DNA of 34,947 nucleotides. It comes from an uncultured Thermococci archaeon (GTDB taxonomy: Archaea; CAYQAE01; CAYVLA01). The stretch spans positions 1-34,947 of the forward strand of contig CAZJVP010000067.1 of the NCBI GenBank assembly GCA_964549615.1, written 5' to 3'. A model generated the notes under the pieces. It was not told where the DNA came from. It worked only from the letters and a program-made list of their open reading frames with translations, and did not search any database. Position numbers and translations under genes: made by a program. Position 1 is the stretch's first letter, and the number at the start of each line of letters is the position of its first letter. This document shows positions 1,559-33,609 of the stretch, piece after piece.

Positions 1559-3364
1559 CTAGATCTTCACGAAGTCAAGCCCCAGCTCGTCCAGCGTCTT
1601 CCTGGTGGGAATGCCGTTTGAGTCCCATCCCCTGACCGCGTAGTAGCTGTCCAGCATCTCCTCCAGCTTCACAGTCACTCCCCGTGACCCGCCTTTCAGC
1701 AGGGGCTCCTTGATGAACCGATCGGGCAGGCGGTCATCGCGCCGGTCGAAGCCCTCGCGCACGTTGAAGGCCCTCTCGAGAGAGTACACGCGCTCGCCGA
1801 TAGTCATGATATCCTCTTGATTGTACTCGACACCGGTGACGGCCTTGAGGAGGCGCGCAAGGTACTCCTGGTTCACGTTGTAGCCCAGGAACTTGCACAC
1901 GACCAGCGAATCCATGGCGGCATATAGGTCCTGCCCACGAACAAGCAGGTCGGCCTTGCCTGACCAGCTGAACCTATCGATCAGTTTGGGGACGCCAAGT
2001 ACTTCCCAGCCAATCATGTAGCCGCGCAGGTGGCATCCGCCGCGGTTGGAGGTCGCATAGGCCAGCCCCATCCCCTGCGAGCCCCTAGGATCGTACGCTG
2101 GAAGCTCCAACCCCTTGACGCTCATCGAGTACTGCCCCGCCCCGTATCGCTCGGCGAAGCGTTTCGACCCCTCCCCGAGCTCCAGGCCAAGCCCCTCCCG
2201 GCACGCGATCTGCGGAATGAGGGCCTTCAGCTTCTGGCCGTCGCCGAACTCGACCTTCTCCTTGAGTATGCCCCGCTGGGAGAGCTCCATCGCACAGCCG
2301 ATGGTGACCCCGGTCGAGATCGTGTCCAATCCATAGTCGTTGCACAGGTAGTTTGCCTCTGCCACCGTCTCCAGATCGAAGACTCCACACTCGGGCCCCA
2401 GCGCGAATGCTGTCTCATACTCGGGGCCGTCTCCCGATGCCCTGGAGGTGGCCGTCTTTCTACCACAGCCTATCGGGCAGCCGAAACACGCGCTCCGCCT
2501 CTTGAGTATCTTTTCGGTCACCGACTCCCCCGAAACGTCGTCGGCCTTTTCGGAGAAGCCCTCCTGGAAGTTGCGGACCGGGAGAAGGCCGTGCGAGTTG
2601 ATGACGTTCATGAGCACGTTCGTGCCGAACTTGGGCAAAGCACGCGACGTGATGGGGCTCTCGTCAAGCTTCTTCTTCGTCTCCGCAACATAGAACTTGA
2701 GCGACTCCGGATCCGCAACCTCTACCCTGGCGGACCCTCTTACGAGGATGGCCTTGAGGTTCTTTGATCCCATGACCGCTCCGACCCCGCCCCTCGCTGC
2801 TACCCCGCCTCTACCCCCATCACCCCTCTTGTCGAACATTATCGAAGAAATGAGGACAAGCCTTTCCCCCGCGGGGCCAATGCATGCAACCCGAAATTCC
2901 CTGCCACCGTATCCAGCAAGGGTTTGGGTAGCCTCGTGGACCCTCATTCCCCAGTAGTCGCTGCCGTCCTTAATGTCGACCGCATCCTCCTCGATCACCA
3001 AGAGGCATGGCTTTTCAGCCCTCCCCTCAATGACTAATGCGTCGTAGCCGGCCCTCTTCAGTTCAGGGCCCCAGCTTCCTCCCGCGTTGGCATCGAGTAT
3101 CGTGTTTGTGAGGGGCGACTTGGTCGAGACGCTCATCCTGCCCGAGGTGGGAACGGCCGTACCTGTCACAGGTCCCGTGGCGAAAATGAGCTTGTTCCCG
3201 GGGCTGAGGGGATCCAGGCCGGGTCTCAGCTCCTCGTAAAGCATTCTTGCGGCGAGCCCGCGCCCACCGAGAAACTTCTGCAGGTCAGAGCGCCGGGGAA
3301 CCTCCCTGGAGATTCTGCCCGAAGTAAGATCAACCCTGAGAATCGAGTTCATCCAGCCGTGCGT
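1559..3364 (-). CDS. aor: Tungsten-dependent aldehyde:ferredoxin oxidoreductase family protein
   Basis: LGGRG, KSPLT, GPAGE, RGGVGAVMGSKNLKAI, CFGCPIGC (4Fe-4S), GPEYET, DTIS, YDPRG, RGGCH, DDRLP-RF. The start is uncertain: ACG at 3364 by SD spacing, ATG at 3352, or GTG at 3433 from the ORF track. Confidence 0.95.
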   Translation of the reverse strand, partial: THGWMNSILRVDLTSGRISREVPRRSDLQKFLGGRGLAARMLYEELRPGLDPLSPGNKLIFATGPVTGTAVPTSGRMSVSTKSPLTNTILDANAGGSWGPELKRAGYDALVIEGRAEKPCLLVIEEDAVDIKDGSDYWGMRVHEATQTLAGYGGREFRVACIGPAGERLVLISSIMFDKRGDGGRGGVAARGGVGAVMGSKNLKAILVRGSARVEVADPESLKFYVAETKKKLDESPITSRALPKFGTNVLMNVINSHGLLPVRNFQEGFSEKADDVSGESVTEKILKRRSACFGCPIGCGRKTATSRASGDGPEYETAFALGPECGVFDLETVAEANYLCNDYGLDTISTGVTIGCAMELSQRGILKEKVEFGDGQKLKALIPQIACREGLGLELGEGSKRFAERYGAGQYSMSVKGLELPAYDPRGSQGMGLAYATSNRGGCHLRGYMIGWEVLGVPKLIDRFSWSGKADLLVRGQDLYAAMDSLVVCKFLGYNVNQEYLARLLKAVTGVEYNQEDIMTIGERVYSLERAFNVREGFDRRDDRLPDRFIKEPLLKGGSRGVTVKLEEMLDSYYAVRGWDSNGIPTRKTLDELGLDFVKI

Positions 3365-3504
3365 AGATTCACCGCCAAGTGACCCGTCCTCCGGACCCTT
3401 ATCCGCTTTAATGTTTCCACCGACACGGCTCACAAACCGCTTGCGATTTGGTTGTCGGAAACAGCTTTTAGGCGACGCCAGGGCCGTAAAGTGGGTGGGC
3501 TCGT

Positions 3505-16940: not shown

Positions 16941-18014
16941 CTAGCACCGGACGGGCAGCCGACCGTGCTTCATCACGGTCTGCGTGATGGCCTCAAGCCC
17001 ACGGTCCCTCTGGGCGGGCGGCACCGTCTCGGTTATGCCAAGGACGAGGCCTTTTCCGGGGCTTGCCTGGCTCAAGAGATTTCGCACGTACCCTCGTATC
17101 CCCTCGGAAGCCCTGTAGAATATGACCTCGGGGATGTTGACCCAAATGGCGAGCTTCTCGCCCCATAGGGCTCGCGCCTCCCTGAGCCCGAGGTCCCCGA
17201 TGGGGGGCGGCGTGAAGGCCTCCACCACGTCCAGGCCCGTCTCCGGCAGCAGATCCTTTAAGCACCTCAACCGCCCGTCCATGTGTGACTGGACGATCTT
17301 TCCCCCGGAGTGCAGAATGTCGGAGTAGCTCTGGTAGTAAGGGATGCAGTAGCGACGGAAAAGGTCGGGATTCACCAAGACCCCGTCGATGTTGTCGCCC
17401 ACGTTCACTATCCTCGGCGGGGCACGAGCGACGATCCTCATCCTCTCCTGGACCTTCAGGTCGATCGCCTCCATCAGCTCCTCCACCTTCTCCCTCCTCC
17501 TCCTGAGCTCGACGACGAACCTCCTGAAGCCCATGTAGTTGACGATCAGTTGCATGAGGGGCGTGTAGCCCGTGCCGACCTGAAGGACGCCGTGGTCGGC
17601 AACCTCCTGCATCCTTTGCTCCAAGTCCGCGTATGCAGGCTTGCAGACCTCATCCTCGATGATGAACTTCACGACCCTGTAGTCATCCGGCCCCTTGATC
17701 ATCCGCTCGACGACCCATCTGTCTCCCCTTTCTCCACCCTCGGACGGCAGGTTTATCCTAGTCTTCTGGGTCACCTCGCCAACGGGCGTCTTGTAGGTCG
17801 TGACGGAATAGTCGCCCAGCGTCTGCGTCTCTGAGGTCACGTTGGGCGTGGAGGCCTTGAAGACCGATGTCGGATACGCGATCCCCATGCCCGCCTTCAG
17901 CAGCGCCTCGAGTACCTGAGGGTCCCGCGGGGTGTGCCCTTTCTTGGGCATCCACGGCACGTAGTCCGGCTCGCCCCAGGTCAAGGCTTGTATCGCCCTC
18001 TCCCTCATCCTCAA
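16941..18014 (-). CDS. Uroporphyrinogen decarboxylase/MtaA-like methyltransferase family protein
   Basis: RER---AL----PD-VP, TP-G, MG---F, P-LF--Y--PYY, SHMDG, EAFTPPP-GD, TE-VP. SD GCGGTGA 5 nt before TTG 18014. Confidence 0.85.
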   Translation of the reverse strand: MRMRERAIQALTWGEPDYVPWMPKKGHTPRDPQVLEALLKAGMGIAYPTSVFKASTPNVTSETQTLGDYSVTTYKTPVGEVTQKTRINLPSEGGERGDRWVVERMIKGPDDYRVVKFIIEDEVCKPAYADLEQRMQEVADHGVLQVGTGYTPLMQLIVNYMGFRRFVVELRRRREKVEELMEAIDLKVQERMRIVARAPPRIVNVGDNIDGVLVNPDLFRRYCIPYYQSYSDILHSGGKIVQSHMDGRLRCLKDLLPETGLDVVEAFTPPPIGDLGLREARALWGEKLAIWVNIPEVIFYRASEGIRGYVRNLLSQASPGKGLVLGITETVPPAQRDRGLEAITQTVMKHGRLPVRC

Positions 18015-18154
18015 CTGGATCACCGCGGCCAGCCGTGGGACGCTCTTCAGGTTCGCCTTTCTGGGGATATCTACATTTATGTAGCACCGATCTGCATGGC
18101 CCGCAGAGGGCACAGGACTTGCGCACGATAACGCACCCAATAACCGGAAAGGAG

Positions 18155-19147
18155 ATGCCCGAGTTCCTCACTGGCGTCATCACCCCCATGCTGACGGCGT
18201 TGAATGAGGACCTCACGCTCGACGAGGAAGGCAACAGATCGCTCATCCAGTGGTACAAGAAGACGGGCGCAGTGACCACGGTCTTCGCCAGATCCGGGGT
18301 GGGGCAGATGGCACATTTCTCCTTCGAACAGGTCAAGACTCTCATCGACATCGCGGTGGACGAGGCAGGGGACGAGATCTTCGTCCTTGCCGGGACGTCC
18401 GGGACGCTCGGCGGGCGAGATCCGGCCAGAAGACCGTCGGAGCAGAAATACGTGGAGGAGACGCTGGAGCTCAGCCGTTACGCTGAAAGGCAAGGGGCAA
18501 CGGGCGTTGTCATCGTATGCCTGGGCTTGGAACCCTCCTCCAACCTGGCGGACAAGATCTTCGACTTTTTCAAAAGGGTCAATGCCTCGATCGACATCCC
18601 CATAGTGATCTACGAACCGCCCGCGACAAACCCAGCCTACAGCATAACCCCTGCCCTCCTCCACAGGCTTGCGGACCTGCCCAAGGTCAAAGGGATGAAG
18701 CTGTCCTCCCCCGACATGCTCAAGTTCGGGCTACTTTGCGATGCGACCAAGGACCAGGACTTCACCATGATCTCAGGGCACGAGGGCGCCTTCCTCACCT
18801 CGCTCGTCTTGGGCGCAGGCGGGGTGATAGGTGGAGGCTGCAACACCCACCCAGAGCTGATACGCGAGATCTTCGACGCCTTCATGGCGGGAGACTGGGA
18901 GAGGGCTCGAAGGGCACAGTTCGAAGTTGCCAGGCTGTTGGGAACGAGGACGCTGGTCCGCGACCCTTACTCGGGGGTTGCTCTCAACGCAGCAAAGATC
19001 TACCTTGCCAGGAAGGGCGTGAAGGTCAAGCCGTACCATTGGCCGGAAGGGAGGTCCGAAAGCGGAAGAACGGACCTAACCGAGAAGGATCTGGACCTGG
19101 CCAAGAAGGCGATAGATGAGGCGCTGCAGTCGATCAGGAGAATCTAG
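18155..19147 (+). CDS. Dihydrodipicolinate synthase/N-acetylneuraminate lyase family aldolase
   Basis: GVITP--T, IP-VIYE-P (catalytic Tyr), GMKLS (Schiff-base Lys), GA-G-IGG--N--PE. SD AAAGGAG before ATG 18155. Confidence 0.88.
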   Translation: MPEFLTGVITPMLTALNEDLTLDEEGNRSLIQWYKKTGAVTTVFARSGVGQMAHFSFEQVKTLIDIAVDEAGDEIFVLAGTSGTLGGRDPARRPSEQKYVEETLELSRYAERQGATGVVIVCLGLEPSSNLADKIFDFFKRVNASIDIPIVIYEPPATNPAYSITPALLHRLADLPKVKGMKLSSPDMLKFGLLCDATKDQDFTMISGHEGAFLTSLVLGAGGVIGGGCNTHPELIREIFDAFMAGDWERARRAQFEVARLLGTRTLVRDPYSGVALNAAKIYLARKGVKVKPYHWPEGRSESGRTDLTEKDLDLAKKAIDEALQSIRRI

Positions 19148-20193
19148 AAAGCCTTCCAGCCCTCTTCGTATCCCTTCTCGTACATCGCGACGACGTTCTC
19201 GGGCGGGGTGTTCGCCTGTATGTTGTGGCATGGCGCCAAAATGTAGCCGCCTCCCCTGCCCAGGATGCGCAGGTTCTCCACGACCTCCCTCCTGACATCC
19301 TCCACCGTTCCGAACGGCAGGGTCTGCTGGTTGTCCATCCCCCCGTGGAAGACCAGTTTCTGGCCGAAGTCGCGCTTCAGCCCCTCCCGGTCCATGCCCC
19401 TGCAGCGCCACTGAATGGGGTTGAGCACGTCTATGCCGGCCCTCACCATGTCCGGAAGTATCTGCCGGATGGCCCCGTCGCTGTGGTGGAACACATACGC
19501 CCCTTCGGAGTGTGCAAGATCGATCACCCGCTTCATCCTAGGGATCAGGAACTCCCTTATCTGCGCAGGCGACATCAAAAGGCCAGTCTGGGATCCCAGG
19601 TCCTCCGCCACATAGGTGATCATCACCTGGCCCGGGATCTGCTCATAGATCCTTCGGGTGTTCTCGTAGGCCAGATCGAACAGCTTGTCCAAGCAGTAAT
19701 GAACGATGTCTGGGTGACGGACGAGGTCAACATAGCCCTGCCACTGTCCGCGAAGATTCTTGTAGACCAAGAACGGCTCAGACCCACCACCCCTGATGGG
19801 GCGGTTTTCCATCCCCTTGATCTGGCCCGGTATGCCAGAGTAATCCCACCAATCCGGGTCGGGCCACTCATAGTTCCGCTTGATCTCCTCCAGACTTGAG
19901 TACTGGGCGAGCGGGTGGTACACAACCTCGGTGTACACGCCGGTTCCGTAGTGGACGTCCTTGTACCTGCAACCGTAGATATCCTCCCCCTCCGGCGGCT
20001 TCGGCCCGACGTACCTGGGGGCCACCGTAACCGGCGTGTCGATGTGGAGGATCTCCAAGGCTTCGTCCAGATTCTTGCAACCCAGATACCTGACCAACCT
20101 CTCGTTTGCCTCGTTCGTCGCCCAGTAGTCCATGGGCACCCGGTCAGGCCTCCTTCGCTGAAGCACCGCGAGCCAACGCTCCCTGGGGGTCAT
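19144..20193 (-). CDS. Uroporphyrinogen decarboxylase/MtaA-like methyltransferase family protein
   Basis: MTPRER-LA-L----PDRVP, HPL, WPDP, EDLGSQ, HHSDG, LNPIQ, FHGG-D-Q, GGYILAPCHNIQ--TP-EN. A possible CTG start lies at 20208. Confidence 0.9.
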   Translation of the reverse strand: MTPRERWLAVLQRRRPDRVPMDYWATNEANERLVRYLGCKNLDEALEILHIDTPVTVAPRYVGPKPPEGEDIYGCRYKDVHYGTGVYTEVVYHPLAQYSSLEEIKRNYEWPDPDWWDYSGIPGQIKGMENRPIRGGGSEPFLVYKNLRGQWQGYVDLVRHPDIVHYCLDKLFDLAYENTRRIYEQIPGQVMITYVAEDLGSQTGLLMSPAQIREFLIPRMKRVIDLAHSEGAYVFHHSDGAIRQILPDMVRAGIDVLNPIQWRCRGMDREGLKRDFGQKLVFHGGMDNQQTLPFGTVEDVRREVVENLRILGRGGGYILAPCHNIQANTPPENVVAMYEKGYEEGWKAF

Positions 20194-20388
20194 GGTTTCC
20201 TTTGGCAGACTATCCGCTCCTCTCCCGCGGGTCGCCAGCAGGCGTTTATTTGTTTCACTGTGGGGCAGGCGCACGGAGCCGCAGCGAGCCCATGAAGCGC
20301 TAGCACTTGCCGCTGGGACGCCGCGTCCATTCGCCACAAGCATGCCTTTTCCGCACGTCGGGTCGGTTCTCACGAAGGTCGAGCGTAT

Positions 20389-21498
20389 CTACGCCTGTAC
20401 TGCAGCCGGCCCGAGGTCGAATCCGGCCTTCATGGCTCGGTACCTCTGGTAGTGGCAGAAATTCTGCCAGGAGATGTCGGGGGGCACGGAGTGGTCGATG
20501 TGGGCGATGTACCCGCCCGTAGCGACGACCGGCCAGACCCTGTCCACCTCGGCCTCTATCTCGGCTTTTCCTTTGGTGAGGGCCTGCTTGTCGATGCCGC
20601 CGAACATGACCAGTTTCCGTCCATACTCCTTCCTGAGTTGTCGCACGTCCATGCCGGACCGCACCTCAAGCGGCCAGATGGCGTTGAGCCCGGCCTTGAG
20701 CCATAGGGGGATGAGGGTGCGCACATCGCCATCGCTGTCCACGCCGATCAAGTCCACGCCTCGCGATCGCAGGTACTTGCACACTATCCTGTACCTAGGA
20801 AGCATGAACTCCTTAAACATCTCGGGGGCAAGCAGGGGCCCGGTTCGGTACGCCATGTCCTCCCAGAAGCCGAATATGTCGATGTCGACATCGTCCAGCA
20901 TCTTGCCCAGGATGGCGAGGAGAACCTCAACACGCTGATCCATCATCTTCTCGACGAATTCCGGCCTCTCGTAGAAGGCCCTGCAAAGGTTCTTCAGGCC
21001 CAGCAGGTTCCGCAACGGGCCGAAGAAGCCGCCCCACCTGTCCGGGAAGTACATCAGCGGCGCGGTCCTTTTCTTCCACTCCTTCACTCTCGCCTCCCAG
21101 TCCTTCGGGAATCTCTCATCCAGCTTGGGCGCCAGCCTCTCTCTGACCAGACGATCGAAGTCCTCCTCGGTCTCCACCGGGAACTTCACGAACTGGGGCA
21201 TGCTCGACCAGCCCCTGTGCTCCTTGAACTCACGCTTCAGGATGCCCTCGTGGTCGATGTAAAGGACGGTTTCAGTGGTCTCCTCGATGACGGTCTTCTC
21301 GAACGGGGGCCAGGGGCCAGCCGATACCGGCACGCCCAGCATCGGGTCGTGGGGGAATATCTCGTGTATCGGGCGCCCGTCCCAGCCCTCTTTTCGCCAT
21401 CTGGCTTCGGTCTCGGGCCACGTTCCCTCGCCCGAGATCCAAGGCCGGTCGGGCTTCTCAAAGTGTGTTATGGCATGGTACCTTTCCCTCGGGGTCAT
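20389..21498 (-). CDS. Uroporphyrinogen decarboxylase/MtaA-like methyltransferase family protein
   Basis: MTPRER------F-KPDR, W-ET--RW--EG, EDMAY--GP, VDSDG, P-EV--GMD, GGIDK, GGYI---DHSVPPD. TATA TTTAAG about 26 nt upstream of ATG 21498. Confidence 0.9.
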   Translation of the reverse strand: MTPRERYHAITHFEKPDRPWISGEGTWPETEARWRKEGWDGRPIHEIFPHDPMLGVPVSAGPWPPFEKTVIEETTETVLYIDHEGILKREFKEHRGWSSMPQFVKFPVETEEDFDRLVRERLAPKLDERFPKDWEARVKEWKKRTAPLMYFPDRWGGFFGPLRNLLGLKNLCRAFYERPEFVEKMMDQRVEVLLAILGKMLDDVDIDIFGFWEDMAYRTGPLLAPEMFKEFMLPRYRIVCKYLRSRGVDLIGVDSDGDVRTLIPLWLKAGLNAIWPLEVRSGMDVRQLRKEYGRKLVMFGGIDKQALTKGKAEIEAEVDRVWPVVATGGYIAHIDHSVPPDISWQNFCHYQRYRAMKAGFDLGPAAVQA

Positions 21499-21593
21499 GC
21501 GCGCAGGCCGGAAGGCGGCCAAACTTAAATGAATGGGTGGTCGCCTCCAGCTGGCGGCAGTGGAGCTTTCCTGGAAACGATTCCGGCGTCCGG

Positions 21594-22400
21594 CTAATCC
21601 CGTCGCGCAAGCTCCCGCATGGCCTCGTCCACCCCCATGTTCTCGTGGACTATGCCCGCTATCGCCCAAACCATCTTCGTCGGGTCCTTTGCCTGGAAGA
21701 CATTCCTCCCGATGCTTGCGCCTGCTGCGCCAGCCTGGACGGCTCCCCAAACCGTCTGCAGCAGCTCCTTTTCCTGGCCTCTTGCGGGTCCTCCGGCTAT
21801 TACCACGGGCGCGGGGCATCCCTTGACGACTTCCCTGAATGAGTCGATATCTCCGGTGTAGTTGGTCTTCACTATGTCGGCGCCCAGTTCGGCCCCGACC
21901 CTGGCCGCAAGCTTCACCGAATCGACGTCGAACTCGCTTGGCACCTTCGGGCCCCTGGGGTACATCATGGCAACGAGCGGCATTCCCCAGTGCATGCACT
22001 TCTTTGACACGCGGCCAAGGCTTGCGAGCATCTCGGATTCGTTCTCGGCCCCTACGTTGATGTGCACGCTGACAGCGTCTGCTCCAAGTTTTATCGCTTC
22101 CTCAACCGTCATGACCAGAACTTTGTTGTCCGGGTTGGGCGAAAGCTTGGTGCTTGCCGAAAGGTGCAGTATGAGGCCGATGTCCCTACCGTAGTGCCTG
22201 TGGCCGAACATCACCAAGCCCCTGTGCCCGATGACGGCGTTGGCCCCGCCGTTTGCCACCTGATCCACTGCCCTCGCCATGTCTATGAGGCCGGGAACCG
22301 GGCCGAGCGTGACGCCGTGATCCATCGGTACGATCACCGTCTTGCCCGTCTCCCTGTTCATGATCCTTTCCATTCTAACTGCTTTGCCTATCTGGGTCAT
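21594..22400 (-). CDS. aroA': 2-amino-3,7-dideoxy-D-threo-hept-6-ulosonate synthase (archaeal class I aldolase, DhnA family)
   Basis: [80 protein letters not shown]. Closely follows the MJ0400-type pattern as I recall it. Confidence 0.85.
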
Positions 22401-22738: not shown

Positions 22739-23554
22739 CTACCTGATGAGCACTACAGCCGCCGAAACGATCCCCAACGAACCCAATGAAACGGCCCAGT
22801 CGCAGAGGCGGAGGCGACTCTCCCTCAGGAAGGTTCGCCTGCCCTTAAGGCCAAAGCCCCTTCCTTCCATGGACACCGATATGGTGCCTATCCTTTCCAG
22901 GGCCGAGACGATGAGGGGCGTGAAGGTATACCTTGCCAGACGCACAAGGGCGCGAGGCCCGGGGACATCGATCTTCAAACCCCTGGCCAGCTGGGCCCTC
23001 CTCACGGTATTGGCCTCAAGCTGGAATATCGGGATGAACCTGAGGGCGAGAACGAGCATGAAGCCGTACCTGTAGGGCACGCCGTGGCTAATCAAGGAGC
23101 ACGCAAGCCGTGCGGGCTCGGTTGTCGTCACGAAAAAGATGCTGGAAATCAGTATCATCAGCAGCCTCGAGGCCATCACTGCCCCCTTTACAAGCCCGCC
23201 GGAAGTTATCACAAGGTCGGCCCCGATCCCCACAGCCCGAAGGTCAAGGCCGCACAAGGGCCTGCCTGCCCGGGTGAAGAGGACCTGTAGGAGGAAAAGG
23301 ATTGCCAGCAGCCAGATGAGGAACCTGAGCCTCCCTAGGATCCTACGCAGGCCGACCCTGGACCTCCATACCAGAATGAACGCCGACGCCAAACCAGCCA
23401 GCATGAGGCACAAACTACGGGCAAGGACGGCGAGAGCGCAGAAACACGAGAGGATCACGATCTTGGTGAGCGGATCGAGCCGGTGTGCGAACGACTCACC
23501 ATCTGCGTATCCAAGCACGCTCAAGAGCCTCTCCACCCCTCGGGCAGATACCAT
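22739..23554 (-). CDS. ecfT: ECF transporter transmembrane T component
   Basis: HRLDP-TK, TT-P--L---L---G-P, ALRFIP, the two conserved motifs AQLARG and MEGRGF, RTF. Confidence 0.93.
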   Translation of the reverse strand: MVSARGVERLLSVLGYADGESFAHRLDPLTKIVILSCFCALAVLARSLCLMLAGLASAFILVWRSRVGLRRILGRLRFLIWLLAILFLLQVLFTRAGRPLCGLDLRAVGIGADLVITSGGLVKGAVMASRLLMILISSIFFVTTTEPARLACSLISHGVPYRYGFMLVLALRFIPIFQLEANTVRRAQLARGLKIDVPGPRALVRLARYTFTPLIVSALERIGTISVSMEGRGFGLKGRRTFLRESRLRLCDWAVSLGSLGIVSAAVVLIR

Positions 23555-24984
23555 TTCTCATCCTCTTTGTCAAGAGTTGAGAAGACATGGTCCGGAGGCC
23601 CCTGAACGAGCACCCTTCCCCGCTTGAGGAAGGCGATCCTGTCGCAGGATTCAGAGGCGAGATCCGGATCGTGTGTCACCAACAGGCACGATGCTCCGCG
23701 ATCGACCTTCTCGCGAACGATCGCCATGATCCTGTCCACGTTTCCCTGGTCTTGGCCCACGAAGGGCTCATCAAGCAGGTATAGGTGAGGTTCGTACACG
23801 ACCACCGACGCGACGTTCAACCTCCTCTTTTCGCCGAGGCTGAGGGCGTGAGGGGACGACTCTCCCCTATCCCGCAACCCGAGGGTTGCAGCCACGTCGG
23901 ACAGGCGAGCGTCCGCCTCTTCCCTCGGAATCCCGAAGTTCCTAGGACCGAAGAGGATCTCGTCGTTGATGGAGGACTCGAATATCTGGTGGTTGGGATT
24001 CTGGAAGACCATTCCAACCTCGCGCGCGATGGCAGAGGTAACCTCCACCCGGCGCCCTGCAAACTTGACCTGGCCGCGCGAAGGCCTCAGCATCCCCATG
24101 ATCATGAGAAGGAGCGTCGTCTTGCCCGATCCATTGTCGCCCATGAGGCCGACCATCTCGCCCCGCCGGATGTCGAGGGTAACATCCTTCAACACCTCGG
24201 TTCCATCGTATGCAAAGCTGACGTGCTCGATGAGCAGGAGGGGGTCGGGGGACAACGTCTTGGGAGGCTGCCTGCGTGCCGCACTCCTCGCCTGCGTCTT
24301 CTCAATCAGCGGACAGGAGTGTAGGGCGGAGACGGAGCCGTGCGACAGGACCGCCATCCTGCTTGCCCGGGCTGCTATCCACGAATACCGATGCTCGATC
24401 ACAACGATCGTCACTCCCTGTGAATTCAGGCGGCCAAGAACATCTCCTATCTCCCATGCGGAGCGCGGATCCAAGCTCGAGGTGGGCTCGTCAAGAATGA
24501 GGACTTTCGGCCTCAGCGCGAGAATGGACGAGATGGCCACCTTCTGAAGCTCGCCTCCTGAAAGACTTGAGATCTGTCTCTCGGAAAGGCCGATGGACCC
24601 TGTGGATTCCAAGGCCCACGATATCCTCTCTTCCATCTCCCTACGGCCCACGCCCATGTTCTCAAGCCCGAAGGCCAGTTCATCCTTGACGTTCAGGGTC
24701 ACCATCTGCGATTCTGGGTCCTGCTGCACGAGGCCCACGAGGCCTACCAGGTTTTGCCTGGGGACGGCGTGAACATCGACCCCGTCGATCAGGACCTTCC
24801 CTTCCATCTCTCCGCTCCCGGGCCCCAGAAAGCCGGCCATGATCTTGGCAAGCGTGGTCTTGCCGCTGCCGCTTTCGCCGATGATCAGGAAGATCTCCCC
24901 GTCAGCTATCCGAAGGTCTATGTTCTGAAGCGCGGGCAGGGTGCACGACCGGTATCTAAAAGATAGGCCCTCAAGATCGATCAA
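23521..24984 (-). CDS. ecfA: ECF transporter ATPase with two fused nucleotide-binding domains
   Basis: GESGSGKTT / QDPESQ / LSGGE / LDEPTS, then GDNGSGKTT / FQNPNHQ / LSLGEKRR / LDEP / VTHD. Confidence 0.95.
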   Translation of the reverse strand: MIDLEGLSFRYRSCTLPALQNIDLRIADGEIFLIIGESGSGKTTLAKIMAGFLGPGSGEMEGKVLIDGVDVHAVPRQNLVGLVGLVQQDPESQMVTLNVKDELAFGLENMGVGRREMEERISWALESTGSIGLSERQISSLSGGELQKVAISSILALRPKVLILDEPTSSLDPRSAWEIGDVLGRLNSQGVTIVVIEHRYSWIAARASRMAVLSHGSVSALHSCPLIEKTQARSAARRQPPKTLSPDPLLLIEHVSFAYDGTEVLKDVTLDIRRGEMVGLMGDNGSGKTTLLLMIMGMLRPSRGQVKFAGRRVEVTSAIAREVGMVFQNPNHQIFESSINDEILFGPRNFGIPREEADARLSDVAATLGLRDRGESSPHALSLGEKRRLNVASVVVYEPHLYLLDEPFVGQDQGNVDRIMAIVREKVDRGASCLLVTHDPDLASESCDRIAFLKRGRVLVQGPPDHVFSTLDKEDEKWYLPEGWRGS

Positions 24985-24987
24985 TGT

Positions 24988-26022
24988 TCATCTCACTTCC
25001 ACTCTGACGATTCCCTGTATCCACTGGGAACCGTCAAGGTCGTCAGCGACGAGGCTGGATCCATTTCCTGCCCTCACGACTATGATCTCGGGGTTCTCCA
25101 TTACCTGGTGCAGATCCAGCACCACGGAGTACCCGTCGGAAGCCACCAGCCTGACCCTTGACGCGGAAGCCTTCGGGGCAGCCCTTCGTAGGATGGCTGA
25201 CAGCGGCACGCCCGTGTAGTTCCTCGGCTCCAGGTGTATGTACGATCCTTTCAGCTCAGCCTGCACGGTCACTAGGTCCTCGTGGAAATCCGACTCCCTG
25301 TAGTTGAATGGCCTCTCGACCAAGCCTTCCACCTCGAACGAACTGGTCTTTTCCCAACGGTACGCGCAGGCAAAGAACCACAACGCTCCACCGACGAATA
25401 CCGCCATCAACACGTAACCCAGCCGCATCCTCCATCGATGGGCTCCGGATGGCCGGGGCACGGCTTTCAGCAGCCCCGAGCTAGACAAGGAAACCAGCAC
25501 GTGGTGGCAGAAATACCCACCGAATATCACCCCCGAGGCAAAAGCCATCGCGGCAATCACCGAGACCAGCAGGAAGGGGACGCCCGAGAGAAACAACGCT
25601 TGGAAGACGAACACGTTGGAGGCGGTCGCCAGCCCGCCCGCCAAGAGGATCTGGACCGAGCTCTCAGGCCGGGACTTGACCATCGCTGCATCCACGATCA
25701 TCCCTTCCACAGTGGAGACGAGCACGACAAGTGCCCCGTGAATGCTACCCGAAAGCATCTCGACCATGCCTTTGAGCGCGCCCGCCAGCGTGCCGGATCC
25801 CGTCTTCCCGGTGACGCATCTGGCCAGCAGGAGCCAGAACACGTGGAGGCCGGCGAGGAACTGGCCTGCCCCAAACGGCGTCCCGACGAAATCGTTCACG
25901 AGATTGGCTAGGTAGCCAACGTAGGTGCTGAGAACGCCCCCCAGAGCACTGAGGATCGAGATCGTGACAAGGTCGGTCGTCGTGAGATGCTGATGCGGCC
26001 TTGCCAGCTTCATTCCCATCAC
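24988..26022 (-). CDS. ECF S-component (YkoE-like) fused to a C-terminal molybdopterin-binding-like (Oxidored_molyb) domain
   Basis: About 6 TM helices with T-DLV---ILSALGG and K-GSG-LAG--KG-VE, a further TM helix, then V-G-VERP...YTGVPLS-IL...ASDGY...G-QW------V. Alternative ATG starts at 26019 and 26013. Confidence 0.85.
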   Translation of the reverse strand: MMGMKLARPHQHLTTTDLVTISILSALGGVLSTYVGYLANLVNDFVGTPFGAGQFLAGLHVFWLLLARCVTGKTGSGTLAGALKGMVEMLSGSIHGALVVLVSTVEGMIVDAAMVKSRPESSVQILLAGGLATASNVFVFQALFLSGVPFLLVSVIAAMAFASGVIFGGYFCHHVLVSLSSSGLLKAVPRPSGAHRWRMRLGYVLMAVFVGGALWFFACAYRWEKTSSFEVEGLVERPFNYRESDFHEDLVTVQAELKGSYIHLEPRNYTGVPLSAILRRAAPKASASRVRLVASDGYSVVLDLHQVMENPEIIVVRAGNGSSLVADDLDGSQWIQGIVRVEVR

Positions 26023-26041: not shown

Positions 26042-27928
26042 CTACGGGAGGACCATTTCTATCCTTGCTATGTTCTTCACCATCTGTTTGCTGCTAAGCC
26101 CCTCCCCGACAAGCCTCAACGGCCATTCATCGGTCAGGATGTCTCCGTCCTTGAGGTAGGCTAGGATGATCTTGTCGTTGCGCCAAAGCATCGTGCTGTT
26201 GACCGTTGCAGTGAAGCCGTCCGATGCGACGATCCTAACCTCATACCCCCTTCTGGCAAGGTCGTCGTCAAAAAGGTAGTGGCCCTCTGGATCGTCCTTT
26301 CCGTCCACGATGCTGATGATGATCCAGAGGGGAAGCCCCTCGTAAAGGTGGGTCTCGCCCTTGATCGTGACGTTCAGCGCGGTCCTGTGCTTGGTGCATG
26401 TCGCTGCGGACTGGAAGGTGGTTCTGTTCAGGACATACTCCGACTTGCCTGACAGCACAACGGTCCAGTCTTTGACGGGCCTCACGACTCTCAGCCCCAC
26501 GACCTGCTTGACCCAGTAGTGGCCGTCGGTGATCGCGTCGCCCTGCCCTACGAATGCCAGGCGCAACGGCATTCCGCTGAACCGGCGGCTCCCATCCTCC
26601 TCGTAGTACAGGATGCTGGTCAGTGACCCGATGCCCATGCTCTGGCCCCGCACATCGTATACCCTGACCTTTCCCTCAACCTCGGACCGGCTCAGCGTCA
26701 TGACATAACCGTCCGATCCGGTAACCTCGACGCTGTAGTTCTCGGGAAGATCTCCGGCCTGCCGCAGGACGGTGAGCAGCGGAACACCGACAAGTTCGTA
26801 AGGCCCCACGACGGCACCAGTTGTCTTCAGATACCCTCCTCGGCCTCGGACCTGCTCGAGAGCAGTCACCTCGCCGAAGTAGAGCGTCCTTGAAGTTACG
26901 CCCTTCACGCTCAGCACCCAGAGCGGAAGGAGCTCTGCCCTTGCCAGATCCGCCAACACCCAATCGGGGCAGGCAAGCACAGGAGGGCCGGCCAAAGGCT
27001 GTCCGTCCATGCAGTCCGCGACGACGATGGCATCGTTCTTAGCCACCCGGCCGCTCTCCAGACTCACTGAGCCCTCCCCCGTGAGCCTGATCTCGTAGCC
27101 CGACTCCGCGTAGCTTAGGTTGAATGAGTCCTCGCCCCGCCTCTTGCCGCCGTCGATCAGTGCAAGCAACCTCCACAATGCGATTCCGCTCCAGGCCCTC
27201 CCTTGGGGATCGGTCACGTTGACCCTGGCATCGAAGCACAGGGTCCCGAACTCGGTCCGGGAAAGGTTCTTGGTTTGTGAGCCGGCAAGCCAGAGGAACC
27301 ACTCGTGGCCGAAGGCGGGTCCCGGCAGGACGTCGATTCTCCAAACGTTCCTGACCATGCGCCCTCCAGCCGAGGGATTCAGGAAGTATCCCTGGCCCGC
27401 GGCGGACGTGTAGCGCGCATCCTCGTTGCTGAACTCTCCATCATCGGGCAGGAAGACCATGCGCGGTCCCTCCTCCCAGCCTGGAATCCGCGTGCCGTCC
27501 TTCGACAGGGCAAGGATGAGATGACCCTGTAGCGAGTGCAGGTCCGAATCGGGGTAGACGTTGAAGTAGGAGTATTCCTGCAGGTAGCCATCGGTGCTGG
27601 ATACCCTTAAGATATCTCCAGGTGCCATCCCCCCAACCTCCTCCACCAATCTGGACACCAATACTCCCTCGTACGTTGCCGGGGCATCCCAGTTGCCGAC
27701 CCTGTTCTCAAACGCCACAACTCCGGACACCGAAGCCAAGGCCTCCAGATCCGAGTAGCGGAGCACGCGAGTGACGCCGTCTTTTCCCGTGATGGTGACA
27801 TTCGGGTACGTCCCGGTCTCGCTCGTGCCCCTGGCGCGAAAGCCTAGATAGGCTAGCCCTGTGCAGAGGACGGCGGCCGCGAACACGAGGAGGCCAATCT
27901 CCACCTTTCGACTTTCGAGAGCAGGCAT
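26042..27928 (-). CDS. Membrane-anchored protein with four tandem molybdopterin-binding-like (Oxidored_molyb) domains
   Basis: N-terminal TM anchor, then four repeats carrying (Y/W)-G(V/I/L)-L, mostly V---DG(Y/F), IL-----DG, P-R(L/M) and (W/M)V(K/R)-V--I. Confidence 0.8.
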   Translation of the reverse strand: MPALESRKVEIGLLVFAAAVLCTGLAYLGFRARGTSETGTYPNVTITGKDGVTRVLRYSDLEALASVSGVVAFENRVGNWDAPATYEGVLVSRLVEEVGGMAPGDILRVSSTDGYLQEYSYFNVYPDSDLHSLQGHLILALSKDGTRIPGWEEGPRMVFLPDDGEFSNEDARYTSAAGQGYFLNPSAGGRMVRNVWRIDVLPGPAFGHEWFLWLAGSQTKNLSRTEFGTLCFDARVNVTDPQGRAWSGIALWRLLALIDGGKRRGEDSFNLSYAESGYEIRLTGEGSVSLESGRVAKNDAIVVADCMDGQPLAGPPVLACPDWVLADLARAELLPLWVLSVKGVTSRTLYFGEVTALEQVRGRGGYLKTTGAVVGPYELVGVPLLTVLRQAGDLPENYSVEVTGSDGYVMTLSRSEVEGKVRVYDVRGQSMGIGSLTSILYYEEDGSRRFSGMPLRLAFVGQGDAITDGHYWVKQVVGLRVVRPVKDWTVVLSGKSEYVLNRTTFQSAATCTKHRTALNVTIKGETHLYEGLPLWIIISIVDGKDDPEGHYLFDDDLARRGYEVRIVASDGFTATVNSTMLWRNDKIILAYLKDGDILTDEWPLRLVGEGLSSKQMVKNIARIEMVLP

Positions 27929-27931
27929 GAG

Positions 27932-27955
27932 CGATATGTTCGCGTGAGCATATCG
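27932..27955. promoter_or_regulatory. ModE-type palindromic operator CGATATGTTC-GCGT-GAGCATATCG
   Basis: 10-bp arms with one mismatch, 24 bp in total, fitting CG-N-TAT-N12-ATA-N-CG. Lies between the minus-strand TATA (TTAAAA, 27963-27968) and ATG 27928. Confidence 0.7.
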
Positions 27956-28102
27956 ACCTTTTTTTTAACTCTTTCCATCGGGCGTCCTAGGGAAAGAGCC
28001 CTTGGGAAAAAAAGCCCCGCAGCCCTTCCTGAAAGCCGGGAACACTTATCAGCGAAAGCCGGTCCGCGTGTCGAAAACCCAGGTGGACGAGAGAGGTCAG
28101 GA

Positions 28103-29542
28103 TTGGAGATAGATCTCGGACTCGGAAAGGGGTTCTCTTTCTACCGGAGGCAGAAGGCCAACTTCAAGGTGCTCAACGCGAGGACCACCCTCGGCAGCTT
28201 CCTTGGGAATCTTACCGCCCCCTATGACCAGGTCTATGCCAAGGAACTGGGAGCTGAGCCGGTGGAGTTGGGATTTCTTTCCTCGGTCGGATCGGCCTTC
28301 GCCGCATCCTTTGCGCTGCCCGGCGGTTTTCTTGCCGATAGATGCGGGAGGAAGAAGCTGTATCTCATCGGGAGCCTGGTGGGTCTGCTCACACCCATGG
28401 TTTACTTCCTCGCGCCAAGCTGGGTCTGGTTGGTACCGGCCTACGTTTTCTCGAACGTCATGATCGCGCTGAGGGAACCCGCCTACCAAGCCATGTATGC
28501 GAGCTCCGTCGAGCCGCGCGACAGGGGGATTGCCTTCGGGATAGGGTCGACGCTCACGAGCATTCCAGTCATGCTGGCCCCGATTGCCGCGGTCGAGCTC
28601 ATGGGACATCCCGCCGCGATCACCGCTGGCCGGATACGACCACTCTACCTCCTCCAACTGATCGGGCTAGCTGCCCTATGGGTATTCGTGTTCCTACTCT
28701 TGACCGAGGAGGGCCGGAACTGGGTTGGAATTAGATCCGCCTTCGGCCCAACGGATCTTCTCTTCCTCTCCCCGTTCATCGCGATTCCACCCGCGGCCTG
28801 TCTCGTTATGGGATTGGCCCAAGGGATCAGCACAGCCGGCCTGATCCCCCTCGTATTCATGGCCTTAAGCCCCCTTCCTCTGGTCGTCGCATGGCACAGA
28901 CATCGGGATGCAACGCCGGCGCAGGAAAGCCTGAGACAGGGCGTGGGCAGGATGTTGAGCCTTCCTGGCGTCAAGGCATGGTTGGCCATGAAGGGAACCG
29001 GTGCCGCCGCCATGGGGCTGGCAAGCCCCTTCTGGCTCGTCTATGCCGCGTACGTTATCGGGGTGTCGCCCGCAGGACTAGCCTTGATGGTCAGCCTCAG
29101 GACCGTCGGCCAGCTGGTTTCGGCCCTGCCTTGGGGTATCGCGGCCGACCGAAGGGGTCGCAAGTTCACCCTGCTTTTCGGCAGGTCCTTCATGCACATC
29201 GGAATCCTCTGCTTCATATTCTCAAGGAGCCCCTGGATGCTCATCCTGGGCTACGCCCTGATGGGCGTCGCAGATGGATCCGCGTGCGTCTGGACCGTCA
29301 TAAGGATGGAGCTGGTTCCCCCTGAATCCCGGAGCGCGATGGCCAGCATGGACGCCTTCGTTTGGTATCTGCCGGTCATATTCGCAGCGATGTTGGGCGG
29401 GATAATCTACTCCTTCTGGACCAAGCTCATCTTCATCCTCTGCTTTGCGATAGATGTCGGGATCAGAATGCCGCTCGTGGCTTTCGGGGTCCCAGAGACC
29501 TCGAAGACGATTCACGCCGAGTCATGGGCTTCGGCCCGGTAG
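28103..29542 (+). CDS. Major facilitator superfamily transporter
   Basis: Motif A appears twice (GFLADRCGRKK; GIAADRRGRK), with RG-A-G and ELVP-E-R and many TM segments. SD GAGGTCA before TTG 28103. Confidence 0.9.
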   Translation: MEIDLGLGKGFSFYRRQKANFKVLNARTTLGSFLGNLTAPYDQVYAKELGAEPVELGFLSSVGSAFAASFALPGGFLADRCGRKKLYLIGSLVGLLTPMVYFLAPSWVWLVPAYVFSNVMIALREPAYQAMYASSVEPRDRGIAFGIGSTLTSIPVMLAPIAAVELMGHPAAITAGRIRPLYLLQLIGLAALWVFVFLLLTEEGRNWVGIRSAFGPTDLLFLSPFIAIPPAACLVMGLAQGISTAGLIPLVFMALSPLPLVVAWHRHRDATPAQESLRQGVGRMLSLPGVKAWLAMKGTGAAAMGLASPFWLVYAAYVIGVSPAGLALMVSLRTVGQLVSALPWGIAADRRGRKFTLLFGRSFMHIGILCFIFSRSPWMLILGYALMGVADGSACVWTVIRMELVPPESRSAMASMDAFVWYLPVIFAAMLGGIIYSFWTKLIFILCFAIDVGIRMPLVAFGVPETSKTIHAESWASAR

Positions 29543-32373: not shown

Positions 32374-32607
32374 CTCTCCCCTTCTACCCTGCTAACTGCC
32401 GCCCCGCCATCCTATAAAGGGTATTCCCTGCAGGCGCTAGGAAGCGGGACCTCATGCTGGAGTCCGTGCATGCGAGCAGGAACGACCCTGATCGATTGCC
32501 GGGGCAGGTAGCGGGACGAACGCCAGAATAACGCAATCTGAGCGGTGGACAACCCTATAACAGTTATGAGAGGAAAGGAACCTGAGCGAAACATTGTACT
32601 GATTGAG

Positions 32608-33609
32608 GTGTTTCGACAACAACGGATTGCTGCAGTTGCCGCAGTTGCGCTGGGCCTGAGCGCCACCCTAGGAACGGTCTTGCCCGCTTCGGCATACCTG
32701 TTCGAGACTTACATACTTCACCTGGAGCCCTCTGACGAGCTCACTCGAGAGTCGATTCAATTCACGATCTCAAACGATGCCGACGAAGTCCTCTACGAGG
32801 GGAACTACACCATAGCGGCGAGCATTCGGAACGTCAGGGTATGTGATCCGAAGGGCCTGCTCCAGCACTCCTCGTCCTTTCGGGACGGCTCAAGCACGAT
32901 CACCTACAGATATCGATCGCCCTTGGCCAAGGGGGATCGCGCGGAGATAAGCATCTCCTTCGAAGTACCGGGCATGGTTGGCAAGAGCACGGTGGTGGAT
33001 GCACAGGGCGTGGAACGCCAGGATCGGATAGTCAACGCTGCCTTCCTTGCCCCGGCTCCGATCCGGCGGTTTGAGGCGAGGGTCGACCTCCCCGAGGAGG
33101 CCTGGCTTGCCCGATCGCTCAACGAATACGCCACCCCTACGGGGTCCCCGCTGCAACCCATCGACGCAAACGTCACCTCGGACGGCACCAACCTGAGGAT
33201 AACGTGGGTGAGGTTGAATCTCTCCCCGGGGGACCGATTTGACTTCTTCGTCGCCTACAGATTCCAGGGACCCGCCATCAGGATACCTGTGTGGGCAATT
33301 GCGCTTGCTGCTGGAGCCGGAGCAGCCGTGGCCGGGGCTTGCAGCTTTTTGCTCCTCAGAAGACGAGCGGTGCAGACCAAGACCGAACGCACACTTGCTC
33401 TTCTGGAAGAGGGGGAAAGGAGGGTCTTGAAGATCCTTCTCGACGCCGGCGGTGAGATGAGACAGGATGATCTGATGAGGATCACGGGCTACTCCAAGGC
33501 CCGCATCAGCCAGCTTGTCACGCACCTTGAGAAGCTCGGGCTCATCCGTAAAGAGAGATTCGAGCGCACGAACAAACTCTATTTGACCGGGGAGGTCAGA
33601 GGGACCTGA
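32608..33609 (+). CDS. Membrane-bound transcriptional regulator: extracellular domain, TM helix and C-terminal winged HTH (COG2512-like)
   Basis: Signal peptide (AAVAAVALGLSATLGTVLPASA), beta-rich domain, TM helix (WAIALAAGAGAAVAGACSFLLL-RRR), then L-EGERRVL-IL---GG-M-Q-DL---TG-SKARIS--V--LE--GLI-K---RTN. Confidence 0.85.
   Translation: MFRQQRIAAVAAVALGLSATLGTVLPASAYLFETYILHLEPSDELTRESIQFTISNDADEVLYEGNYTIAASIRNVRVCDPKGLLQHSSSFRDGSSTITYRYRSPLAKGDRAEISISFEVPGMVGKSTVVDAQGVERQDRIVNAAFLAPAPIRRFEARVDLPEEAWLARSLNEYATPTGSPLQPIDANVTSDGTNLRITWVRLNLSPGDRFDFFVAYRFQGPAIRIPVWAIALAAGAGAAVAGACSFLLLRRRAVQTKTERTLALLEEGERRVLKILLDAGGEMRQDDLMRITGYSKARISQLVTHLEKLGLIRKERFERTNKLYLTGEVRGT

Follow-up and report, generated by a model that had tools for sequence, protein, structure and literature searches.

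A putative ModE operator in front of an ECF transporter operon in uncultured Thermococci archaea, and a possible link to tungsten and molybdenum cofactor salvage

Which protein acts on a palindrome placed between the promoter and the start codon of an ECF transporter operon, and what does this operon import? The question is raised by a contig of an uncultured Thermococci archaeon (CAZJVP010000067.1, assembly GCA_964549615.1), whose 34,947 nucleotides are the window analysed here. Its genome has 3.2 Mb and will be called G000; the features of the window are collected in Table 1. The palindrome, CGATATG-TTCGCGTGAG-CATATCG, is 24 bp long, with perfect 7-bp arms and a 10-nt spacer. Read along the minus strand, the elements are GGAAAGAG, TTAAAAAAAA, GGT, palindrome, CTC and the ATG at 27,928: the palindrome starts 3 nt past the run TTAAAAAAAA and 7 nt past a TTAAAA hexamer, and ends 3 nt before the ATG. 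Both the sequence and the distances agree with the first-pass annotation, which had placed a 24-bp palindrome between a TATA box and the ATG of the ECF operon. In archaeal promoters the TATA box lies at about -30 to -23 from the transcription start, so that transcription is predicted to start inside the downstream half-site of the palindrome.

Table 1. Features of the window around the palindrome and elsewhere (window coordinates)
Feature	Position	Strand	Basis
ModE-type operator (putative), CGATATGY-N8-RCATATCG	27932..27955	.	Equals the consensus of archaeal sites before orthologous operons
TATA-like run TTAAAAAAAA, predicted ECF operon promoter	27959..27968	-	Sequence; G001-G003 have similar runs, 3-8 nt ahead of the box
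Predicted BRE-like run of purines, GGAAAGAG	27969..27976	-	G001 and G002 retain AAAGAG
Predicted transcription start, about 27938, in the downstream half-site, short leader	27935..27941	-	Promoter geometry
First gene of the operon, 628 aa, N-terminal membrane anchor, sulfite-oxidase/PruR-like repeats, candidate extracellular binding protein	26042..27928	-	PF00174
ECF S component (YkoE-like, PF09819) with C-terminal cysteine-free SUOX/PruR-like domain	24988..26022	-	Pfam; structure model
ECF double ATPase (AA)	23521..24984	-	TIGR04520 above cut-off
ECF T component	22739..23554	-	PF02361
Divergent MFS transporter with inferred TTG start at 28103; the box probably does not act on it	28103..29542	+	Replaced in G002
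AOR-family gene, one of five in G000, a client that needs the cofactor; no box found nearby	1559..3433	-	Family match

The symmetry of the palindrome means little by itself, since G000 contains 265 perfect inverted repeats of the form 7-N10-7, whatever their sequence; its sequence and its position carry the weight. The pattern CG-N-TATR-N10-YATA-N-CG has a single match in the window, where 0.01 are expected from shuffled sequences, and a single exact match in the whole genome, which is again the palindrome. In its length of 24 bp, its CG-N-TAT arms and its fixed spacer the palindrome has the form expected of a ModE operator.

We will start with a comparison with known ModE sites. The consensus for Escherichia coli is ATCGNTATATA-N6-TATATANCGAT, as given in an excerpt of PMC545781. 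The palindrome shares with it the length of 24 bp and the CG-N-TAT arms, but it departs from it at 5 of the 16 specified positions, which corrects the first-pass annotation, where this consensus was quoted. The likeness to Methanosarcina, which had also been pointed out, is closer. The ModE of Methanosarcina acetivorans has one Mop domain; it binds RTTATGT-N8-RCATAAY in EMSA, represses in vivo according to CRISPRi evidence and is unresponsive to molybdate in vitro (PMC12327845). On its best strand the palindrome has only 2 mismatches to this motif, both where the E. coli consensus has N; at the variable third position it has A and the M. acetivorans motif has T. The two systems share the length and symmetry of the operator, a ModE with a single Mop domain and a repressor-type position near the start codon. 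They differ in their targets: one ECF importer operon in G000, mod/wtp transporters or nitrogenases in M. acetivorans.

The element is conserved. Orthologues of the first gene were found in two of the 60 relatives searched, G001 and G002, and both have the same 24-bp element in the same promoter position. It lies 7–8 nt before the ATG and right after a TATA-like run; the spacer and the flanks have diverged. G002 has a different gene in place of the divergent MFS gene and retains the box, which indicates that the box belongs with the ECF operon. Upstream of the MFS gene there is another stretch of 17 bp shared with G001 (window 28,033–28,056), probably the promoter or operator of that gene.

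More distant loci were obtained from a scan of GTDB genomes, which gave 252 relatives of the fused S component (the S fusion). The best 80 loci were taken, 55 archaeal and 25 bacterial; 12 archaeal and 3 bacterial loci with less than 200 nt of upstream DNA were left out, leaving 43 and 22. Among these loci from the best 80 of 252, 32 of the 43 archaeal loci and none of the 22 bacterial ones have the core G.TATR-N10-YATA.C in their 350-nt start region, with a mean of 0.08 and a maximum of 1 in shuffles. One locus (L037) repeats a family site; without it the archaeal count is 31/42. The spacer is remarkably constant: a length of 10 gives 32/43 archaeal loci, lengths of 6–9 and 11–14 give 0–1/43. 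A weight matrix built from the sites outside the family has the consensus CGATATGCT-N6-AGCATATCG and ranks the palindrome first in G000, with 30.9 bits as against 15.2 for the runner-up. The conservation that the first-pass annotation had proposed to look for is thus found before orthologous operons, within the family as well as among distant archaea.

These sites also bear on a quite different reading, in which the palindrome works as a hairpin in RNA (an intrinsic terminator on the plus strand with a 10-bp stem and a T run, or a riboswitch) or is the end of a mobile element. The plus strand does fold at -13.2 kcal/mol before eight Ts, but no plus-strand gene ends at the palindrome and the repeat would be incomplete in the predicted transcript of the operon. 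In 39 orthologous sites of fixed length the third pair is complementary in just 19, a pattern more in keeping with an operator in DNA than with a stem in RNA. No Rfam match, such as the TPP riboswitch expected of a YkoE thiamine/HMP transporter, was found in positions 27,700–28,300, and there is no recombinase among the 30 open reading frames scanned in the window. We have rejected the terminator, riboswitch and mobile-element readings on the pairing pattern across sites and the absence of an Rfam match, and consider this whole class extremely improbable.

If the palindrome is an operator, the genome should contain its regulator. There is a single ModE-type gene in G000, outside the window (contig C72), with a score of 78 bits, which is below the TIGR00637 cut-off of 98.5. 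Its best PDB matches, both in sequence and in fold, are ModE proteins, and its winged helix is homologous to that of E. coli ModE (structures 1b9m and 1o7l). The ModE-like regulator that the first-pass annotation had suggested searching for is therefore present elsewhere in the genome. Orthologues in a conserved context are found in G001, G002 and a further relative, G003, so that all four family genomes have the gene; in all four it lies (L001:2550–2972 in one locus) two genes downstream of a gene that by eye is NikR-like, of the ribbon-helix-helix type. In G004 we found neither ModE nor AOR, MoaC, the ECF operon or an exact box.

Besides its winged helix the G000 ModE has a single OB/TOBE-like C-terminal domain, which is beta-rich and more degenerate than that of M. 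acetivorans. None of the four family ModE proteins has a Pfam TOBE match or a SARN motif, the oxyanion-binding motif of ModE; SARN/TOBE is present in four of five comparison proteins. E. coli ModE has two molybdate-binding Mop domains, whereas the G000 protein has one degenerate domain without SARN instead of the two Mop/TOBE domains with an oxyanion-binding motif that characterize molybdate sensing of the E. coli type. Direct sensing of molybdate or tungstate by this protein is therefore doubtful.

Next we looked at the genomes which carry the operon. Fifty of the 80 carrier genomes were tested: all 25 bacterial ones and 25 archaeal ones with long contigs and a spread of taxa, chosen before the results. 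A ModE-type gene is found in 23/25 archaeal and 4/25 bacterial carriers, mirroring the box. Two genomes, G090 and G099, have the box and no ModE was found in them. The latter observation would suit a different regulator, for instance the product of the winged-helix gene at window positions 32,545–33,609, or a core-promoter element, the operon being then a thiamine-type YkoE operon unrelated to Mo/W; the YkoE-like S component and the lack of linkage between ModE and the operon in G000 point in the same direction. But the box tracks ModE across domains, it precedes tup, moa or modE genes elsewhere and it is a near-match to an experimentally shown ModE motif, so that this alternative is very improbable. 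On these comparisons the palindrome is very probably a binding site of ModE.

The architecture of ModE varies among archaea. Many Thermoplasmatota have a ModE fusion in which the winged helix comes first and a Nudix domain, its Nudix box apparently intact, forms the C-terminal part, the reverse of the order in NrtR (L124-L132, L139-L141, L144, L148, L311-L313, L317, L318, L320 and L322-L326). Such fusions occur both with and without the ECF operon. In Asgard, Theionarchaea and Methanofastidiosa carriers ModE is a bare winged helix. We considered the Nudix fusion as a mark of cofactor salvage and rejected it, as it is also found in MoaC-positive genomes without the importer.

We will now turn to the operon itself. 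It has genes for the S component, the ATPase and the T component, as group I ECF transporters do. The S component matches the fold of YkoE (5edl) at 19% identity. The structure model of the S fusion (pLDDT 89) gives Foldseek matches with 5edl (E 2e-6), the SUOX family (E 1e-5) and PruR 7kos (E 9e-4); 262 homologues of the fusion were found among 8000 scored candidates. The group I transporter YkoEDC, whose S component is 5edl, has the same S fold and likewise encodes its own AA and T proteins within a single operon. It differs from the present operon, in which S carries a fused SUOX/PruR-like domain, a multi-repeat binding protein comes first, a ModE box is present and AOR co-occurs.

The 628-aa protein contains at least three repeats detected with an HMM of the S-fused domain; its only PDB sequence match is a weak one with PruR 7kos (E 0.7). 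The Mo-ligating cysteine that a sulfite oxidase enzyme would have is absent from the S-fused domain (residues about 226–344). PruR, as described in an excerpt of PMC11194511, shares this cysteine-free, truncated SUOX fold facing outward, and the DGY tyrosine aligns with the N-D-Y stretch of PruR. PruR proteins bind small pterins other than Moco and are paired with the signalling enzyme DcpA; here the domain is instead tied to an importer, repeated and membrane-anchored, and no DcpA-like gene was found among the conserved neighbours of the operon. A domain related to the first gene of the operon occurs elsewhere in G000 (contig C100, L005:601–1944), fused to a membrane-anchored metallophosphoesterase; this fusion, a possible salvage accessory, is also found in G001 and G002 and has no box.

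The substrate of the importer is suggested by the genes which accompany or replace it. G000, G001 and G002 (99.5, 100 and 96% complete) have five AOR-family genes each, together with matches to the DMSO-reductase family. In these three genomes we did not find MoaA above cut-off, MoaC, MoeA, TupA or ModA/WtpA; their solute-binding matches are PstS- and PotD-like on inspection. A tblastn search of G000 with the proteins of G003 did not detect TupA, TupB, MoaE, MoaC, MoaB or MoeA, and gave only weak radical-SAM, ABC-ATPase and MoaD-like matches. G003 (91% complete, about 500 contigs) also has five AOR genes; the ECF operon was not found in it, and its one exact box lies 8 nt before tupA of the cluster tupA-tupB-ABC ATPase-moaA-moaD-moaE-moaC-moaB-moeA.

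Four Thermoplasmatota genomes, picked for showing a strong site, have related arrangements. The box precedes moaA-moaE-moeA-mobB in G121, in G123 and G137 it separates modE from a divergently oriented tupABC, and in G113 it stands before two PruR-like genes; the latter genome is ModE-positive, without MoaC and MoeA. Promoters of Mo/W uptake or cofactor genes, where a ModE operator is expected, thus have the box in G003, G121, G123 and G137, and its target in G000 is the ECF operon. The link between operon and Mo/W drawn in the first-pass annotation holds, as the same box stands before tupABC, moa and moe genes or modE in relatives. The exchange with tup/moa/moe operons is the best argument at the sequence level for cofactor salvage here. 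After the PruR-like genes of G113 there is a gene for an unclassified 243-aa membrane protein (contig C41, L327:450–2355), possibly a second form of salvage; considered as an S component, it was rejected, having no match to the S-component alignment.

We propose the following explanation. A ModE dimer would bind between the TATA box and the transcription start and would repress the ECF operon when the supply of Mo/W cofactor is sufficient; that ModE acts as a repressor of this operon is likely. The ModE regulon of the lineage would have been reduced to one operon and its content exchanged, G003 having tupABC uptake with de novo synthesis by moa/moe and G000–G002 having an ECF importer whose binding domains are of the pterin fold. 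What the importer salvages for AOR and the enzymes of the DMSO-reductase family would be the finished metal-pyranopterin cofactor or one of its late forms. A metal-loaded cofactor is favoured by the lack in G000 of known enzymes to finish a precursor, and import of the ready-made W/Mo-pterin cofactor has a somewhat better than even chance of being correct. The explanation as a whole (ModE operator, one-operon regulon, importer salvaging cofactor) appears highly likely to us.

Two alternatives keep the ModE operator and change the substrate. The importer might carry a smaller pterin or a precursor, such as a PruR-like ligand, cPMP or metal-free molybdopterin: the fused domain is cysteine-free and PruR-like, the pocket of PruR is too short for Moco according to excerpts of PMC11194511 and PMC13259868, and metallophosphoesterase domains are fused to related domains. 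However MoaE, MoaB, MoeA and an oxyanion transporter were not found in G000, where known enzymes could not complete a metal-free precursor; we consider this alternative unlikely. The ECF system might also be a new importer of molybdate or tungstate replacing TupABC, as it stands in place of tupABC under the same box and adjoins modABC or tupA in three bacteria of the Desulfotomaculaceae group (L040, L041 and L087, with the operon just after modABC and tupA genes between in two of them). Yet a cell lacking moa/moe, as 22/25 archaeal carriers do, could make no use of imported oxyanions, and the binding domains are modelled with a pterin-cofactor fold, which makes an oxyanion importer improbable.

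Returning to salvage of the finished cofactor, we have compared the distribution of importer, enzymes and synthesis genes. AOR is encoded in 50/50 tested carrier genomes. MoaC and MoeA are found in the same 3/25 archaeal carriers; MoaC is found in 15/25 bacterial ones. Among 201 Thermoplasmatota genomes 5 have the operon and 97 have AOR matches, 53 of them at E <1e-60. In these 53 genomes with a canonical AOR, MoaC is present in 0/5 with the operon and in 24/48 without it (Fisher p 0.056, for genomes which are non-independent by kinship); AOR without moaC is thus common even where there is no importer. Of the 24 Thermoplasmatota which have AOR but neither moaC nor the operon, 22 are also without ModE. 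A post hoc split of the 20 ModE-positive Thermoplasmatota, again not independent because of kinship, gives 14 with MoaC, 4 with the operon and 2 with neither. The 24 genomes with neither route include G111, G133, G162 and G183. A split form of the importer was rejected as the cause of most of them, since PF00174 is present in only 7/24.

The operator is of a known type; the novelty lies in its single target and in an uncharacterised ECF family under a ModE box. The box gives evidence, independent of protein sequence, which places this family in Mo/W-cofactor supply. In a wider proposal, to which we give an even chance, many uncultured archaea (Hadarchaeota-like, Thermoplasmata, Asgard, Theionarchaea, Methanofastidiosa) would have dropped oxyanion uptake and cofactor synthesis and would import the cofactor through ECF systems that bear tethered pterin-fold receptors; their ModE, with a degenerate TOBE domain, a Nudix fusion or a bare winged helix, may sense the cofactor pool and not molybdate. 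They offer simple systems to study how a single-Mop archaeal ModE senses metal, a question left open in PMC12327845.

Peng et al. (2018) reported several hundred organisms which have molybdoenzymes and no complete cofactor pathway; in the excerpt of their paper (PMC6147048) unknown biosynthesis genes or metal-free enzymes are suggested, and import is not proposed. Cofactor import would be a third answer to such orphan molybdoenzymes and, if true, Moco/Wco would be a cross-fed vitamin in anaerobic communities. A literature search, with most subscription journals outside its scope, gave nothing on a prokaryotic Moco/Wco importer or a ModE-controlled ECF operon, and an excerpt of PMC13328260 contains no uptake or scavenging terms. 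Dietary Moco uptake in Caenorhabditis elegans, the subject of PMC7849362 and PMC9793310, likewise uses Moco made by others, but in an animal and without relation to ECF transporters.

Two observations on other genes may be added. A sulfite-oxidase/MsrP-like gene of G000 (contig C30, 28,928–29,938) has, by eye, an apparent serine at the expected Mo-ligating cysteine. In the window, positions 16,941–21,999 contain three tandem URO-D/methyltransferase-fold genes beside aldolase, phosphatase and glutamine-amidotransferase-like genes.

Finally we have searched for other sites. ModE operators are expected at several co-regulated sites per genome; G000 has one. The weight matrix gives no second strong site, the next best being inside a gene. 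One-mismatch sites number 9, with 5 for a reversed control, and none of the contexts shown is beside Mo/W genes, so that the enrichment before such genes, for which the first-pass annotation had proposed a test, is not seen in G000. No tup, mod, wtp, moa or moe genes that could be regulated were found there. A near-match in G000 (C104:64278) was rejected, as it lies inside an ORF. Extra exact matches in G001 (C227) and G002 (C12) have no recognisable Mo/W gene beside them. A loose pattern, GWTATRY-N8-RYATAWC, matched 81 of the 201 Thermoplasmatota genomes and was discarded as unspecific: of 30 loci retrieved only L160 and L161 adjoin relevant genes, and L168 and L175 score about as high as L160 without any such gene.

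A gene-blind metagenome scan with the strict consensus gave at least 121 stretches, of which the 80 listed were examined, with no matched background. Among these 80, 19 adjoin Mo/W genes, 16 by family matches and 3 by HTH_1 domains which are ModE-like by eye. The families beside the 16 loci are ModE, TupA/B, WtpA/ModA-like, ModC-like, AOR and the FAD subunit of the xanthine-oxidase family; in L268 the box has a divergent modE on one side and a PruR-like repeat gene on the other. Another 29 of the 80 are a look-alike with self-complementary spacers, the others are unexplained, and 7/80 adjoin an integrase or IS21 gene according to Pfam; it is these two counts that speak for the mobile-element reading rejected above. 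The look-alike has the form CGTTATGCA-(self-complementary 6 nt)-TGCATAACG with extended arms (L192, L197, L198, L202, L203, L205-L208, L217-L219, L236, L239, L253, L259, L261, L262, L267 and L269). Some copies are beside tyrosine recombinase or IS21 genes; it is probably a mobile-element site and a source of false ModE calls.
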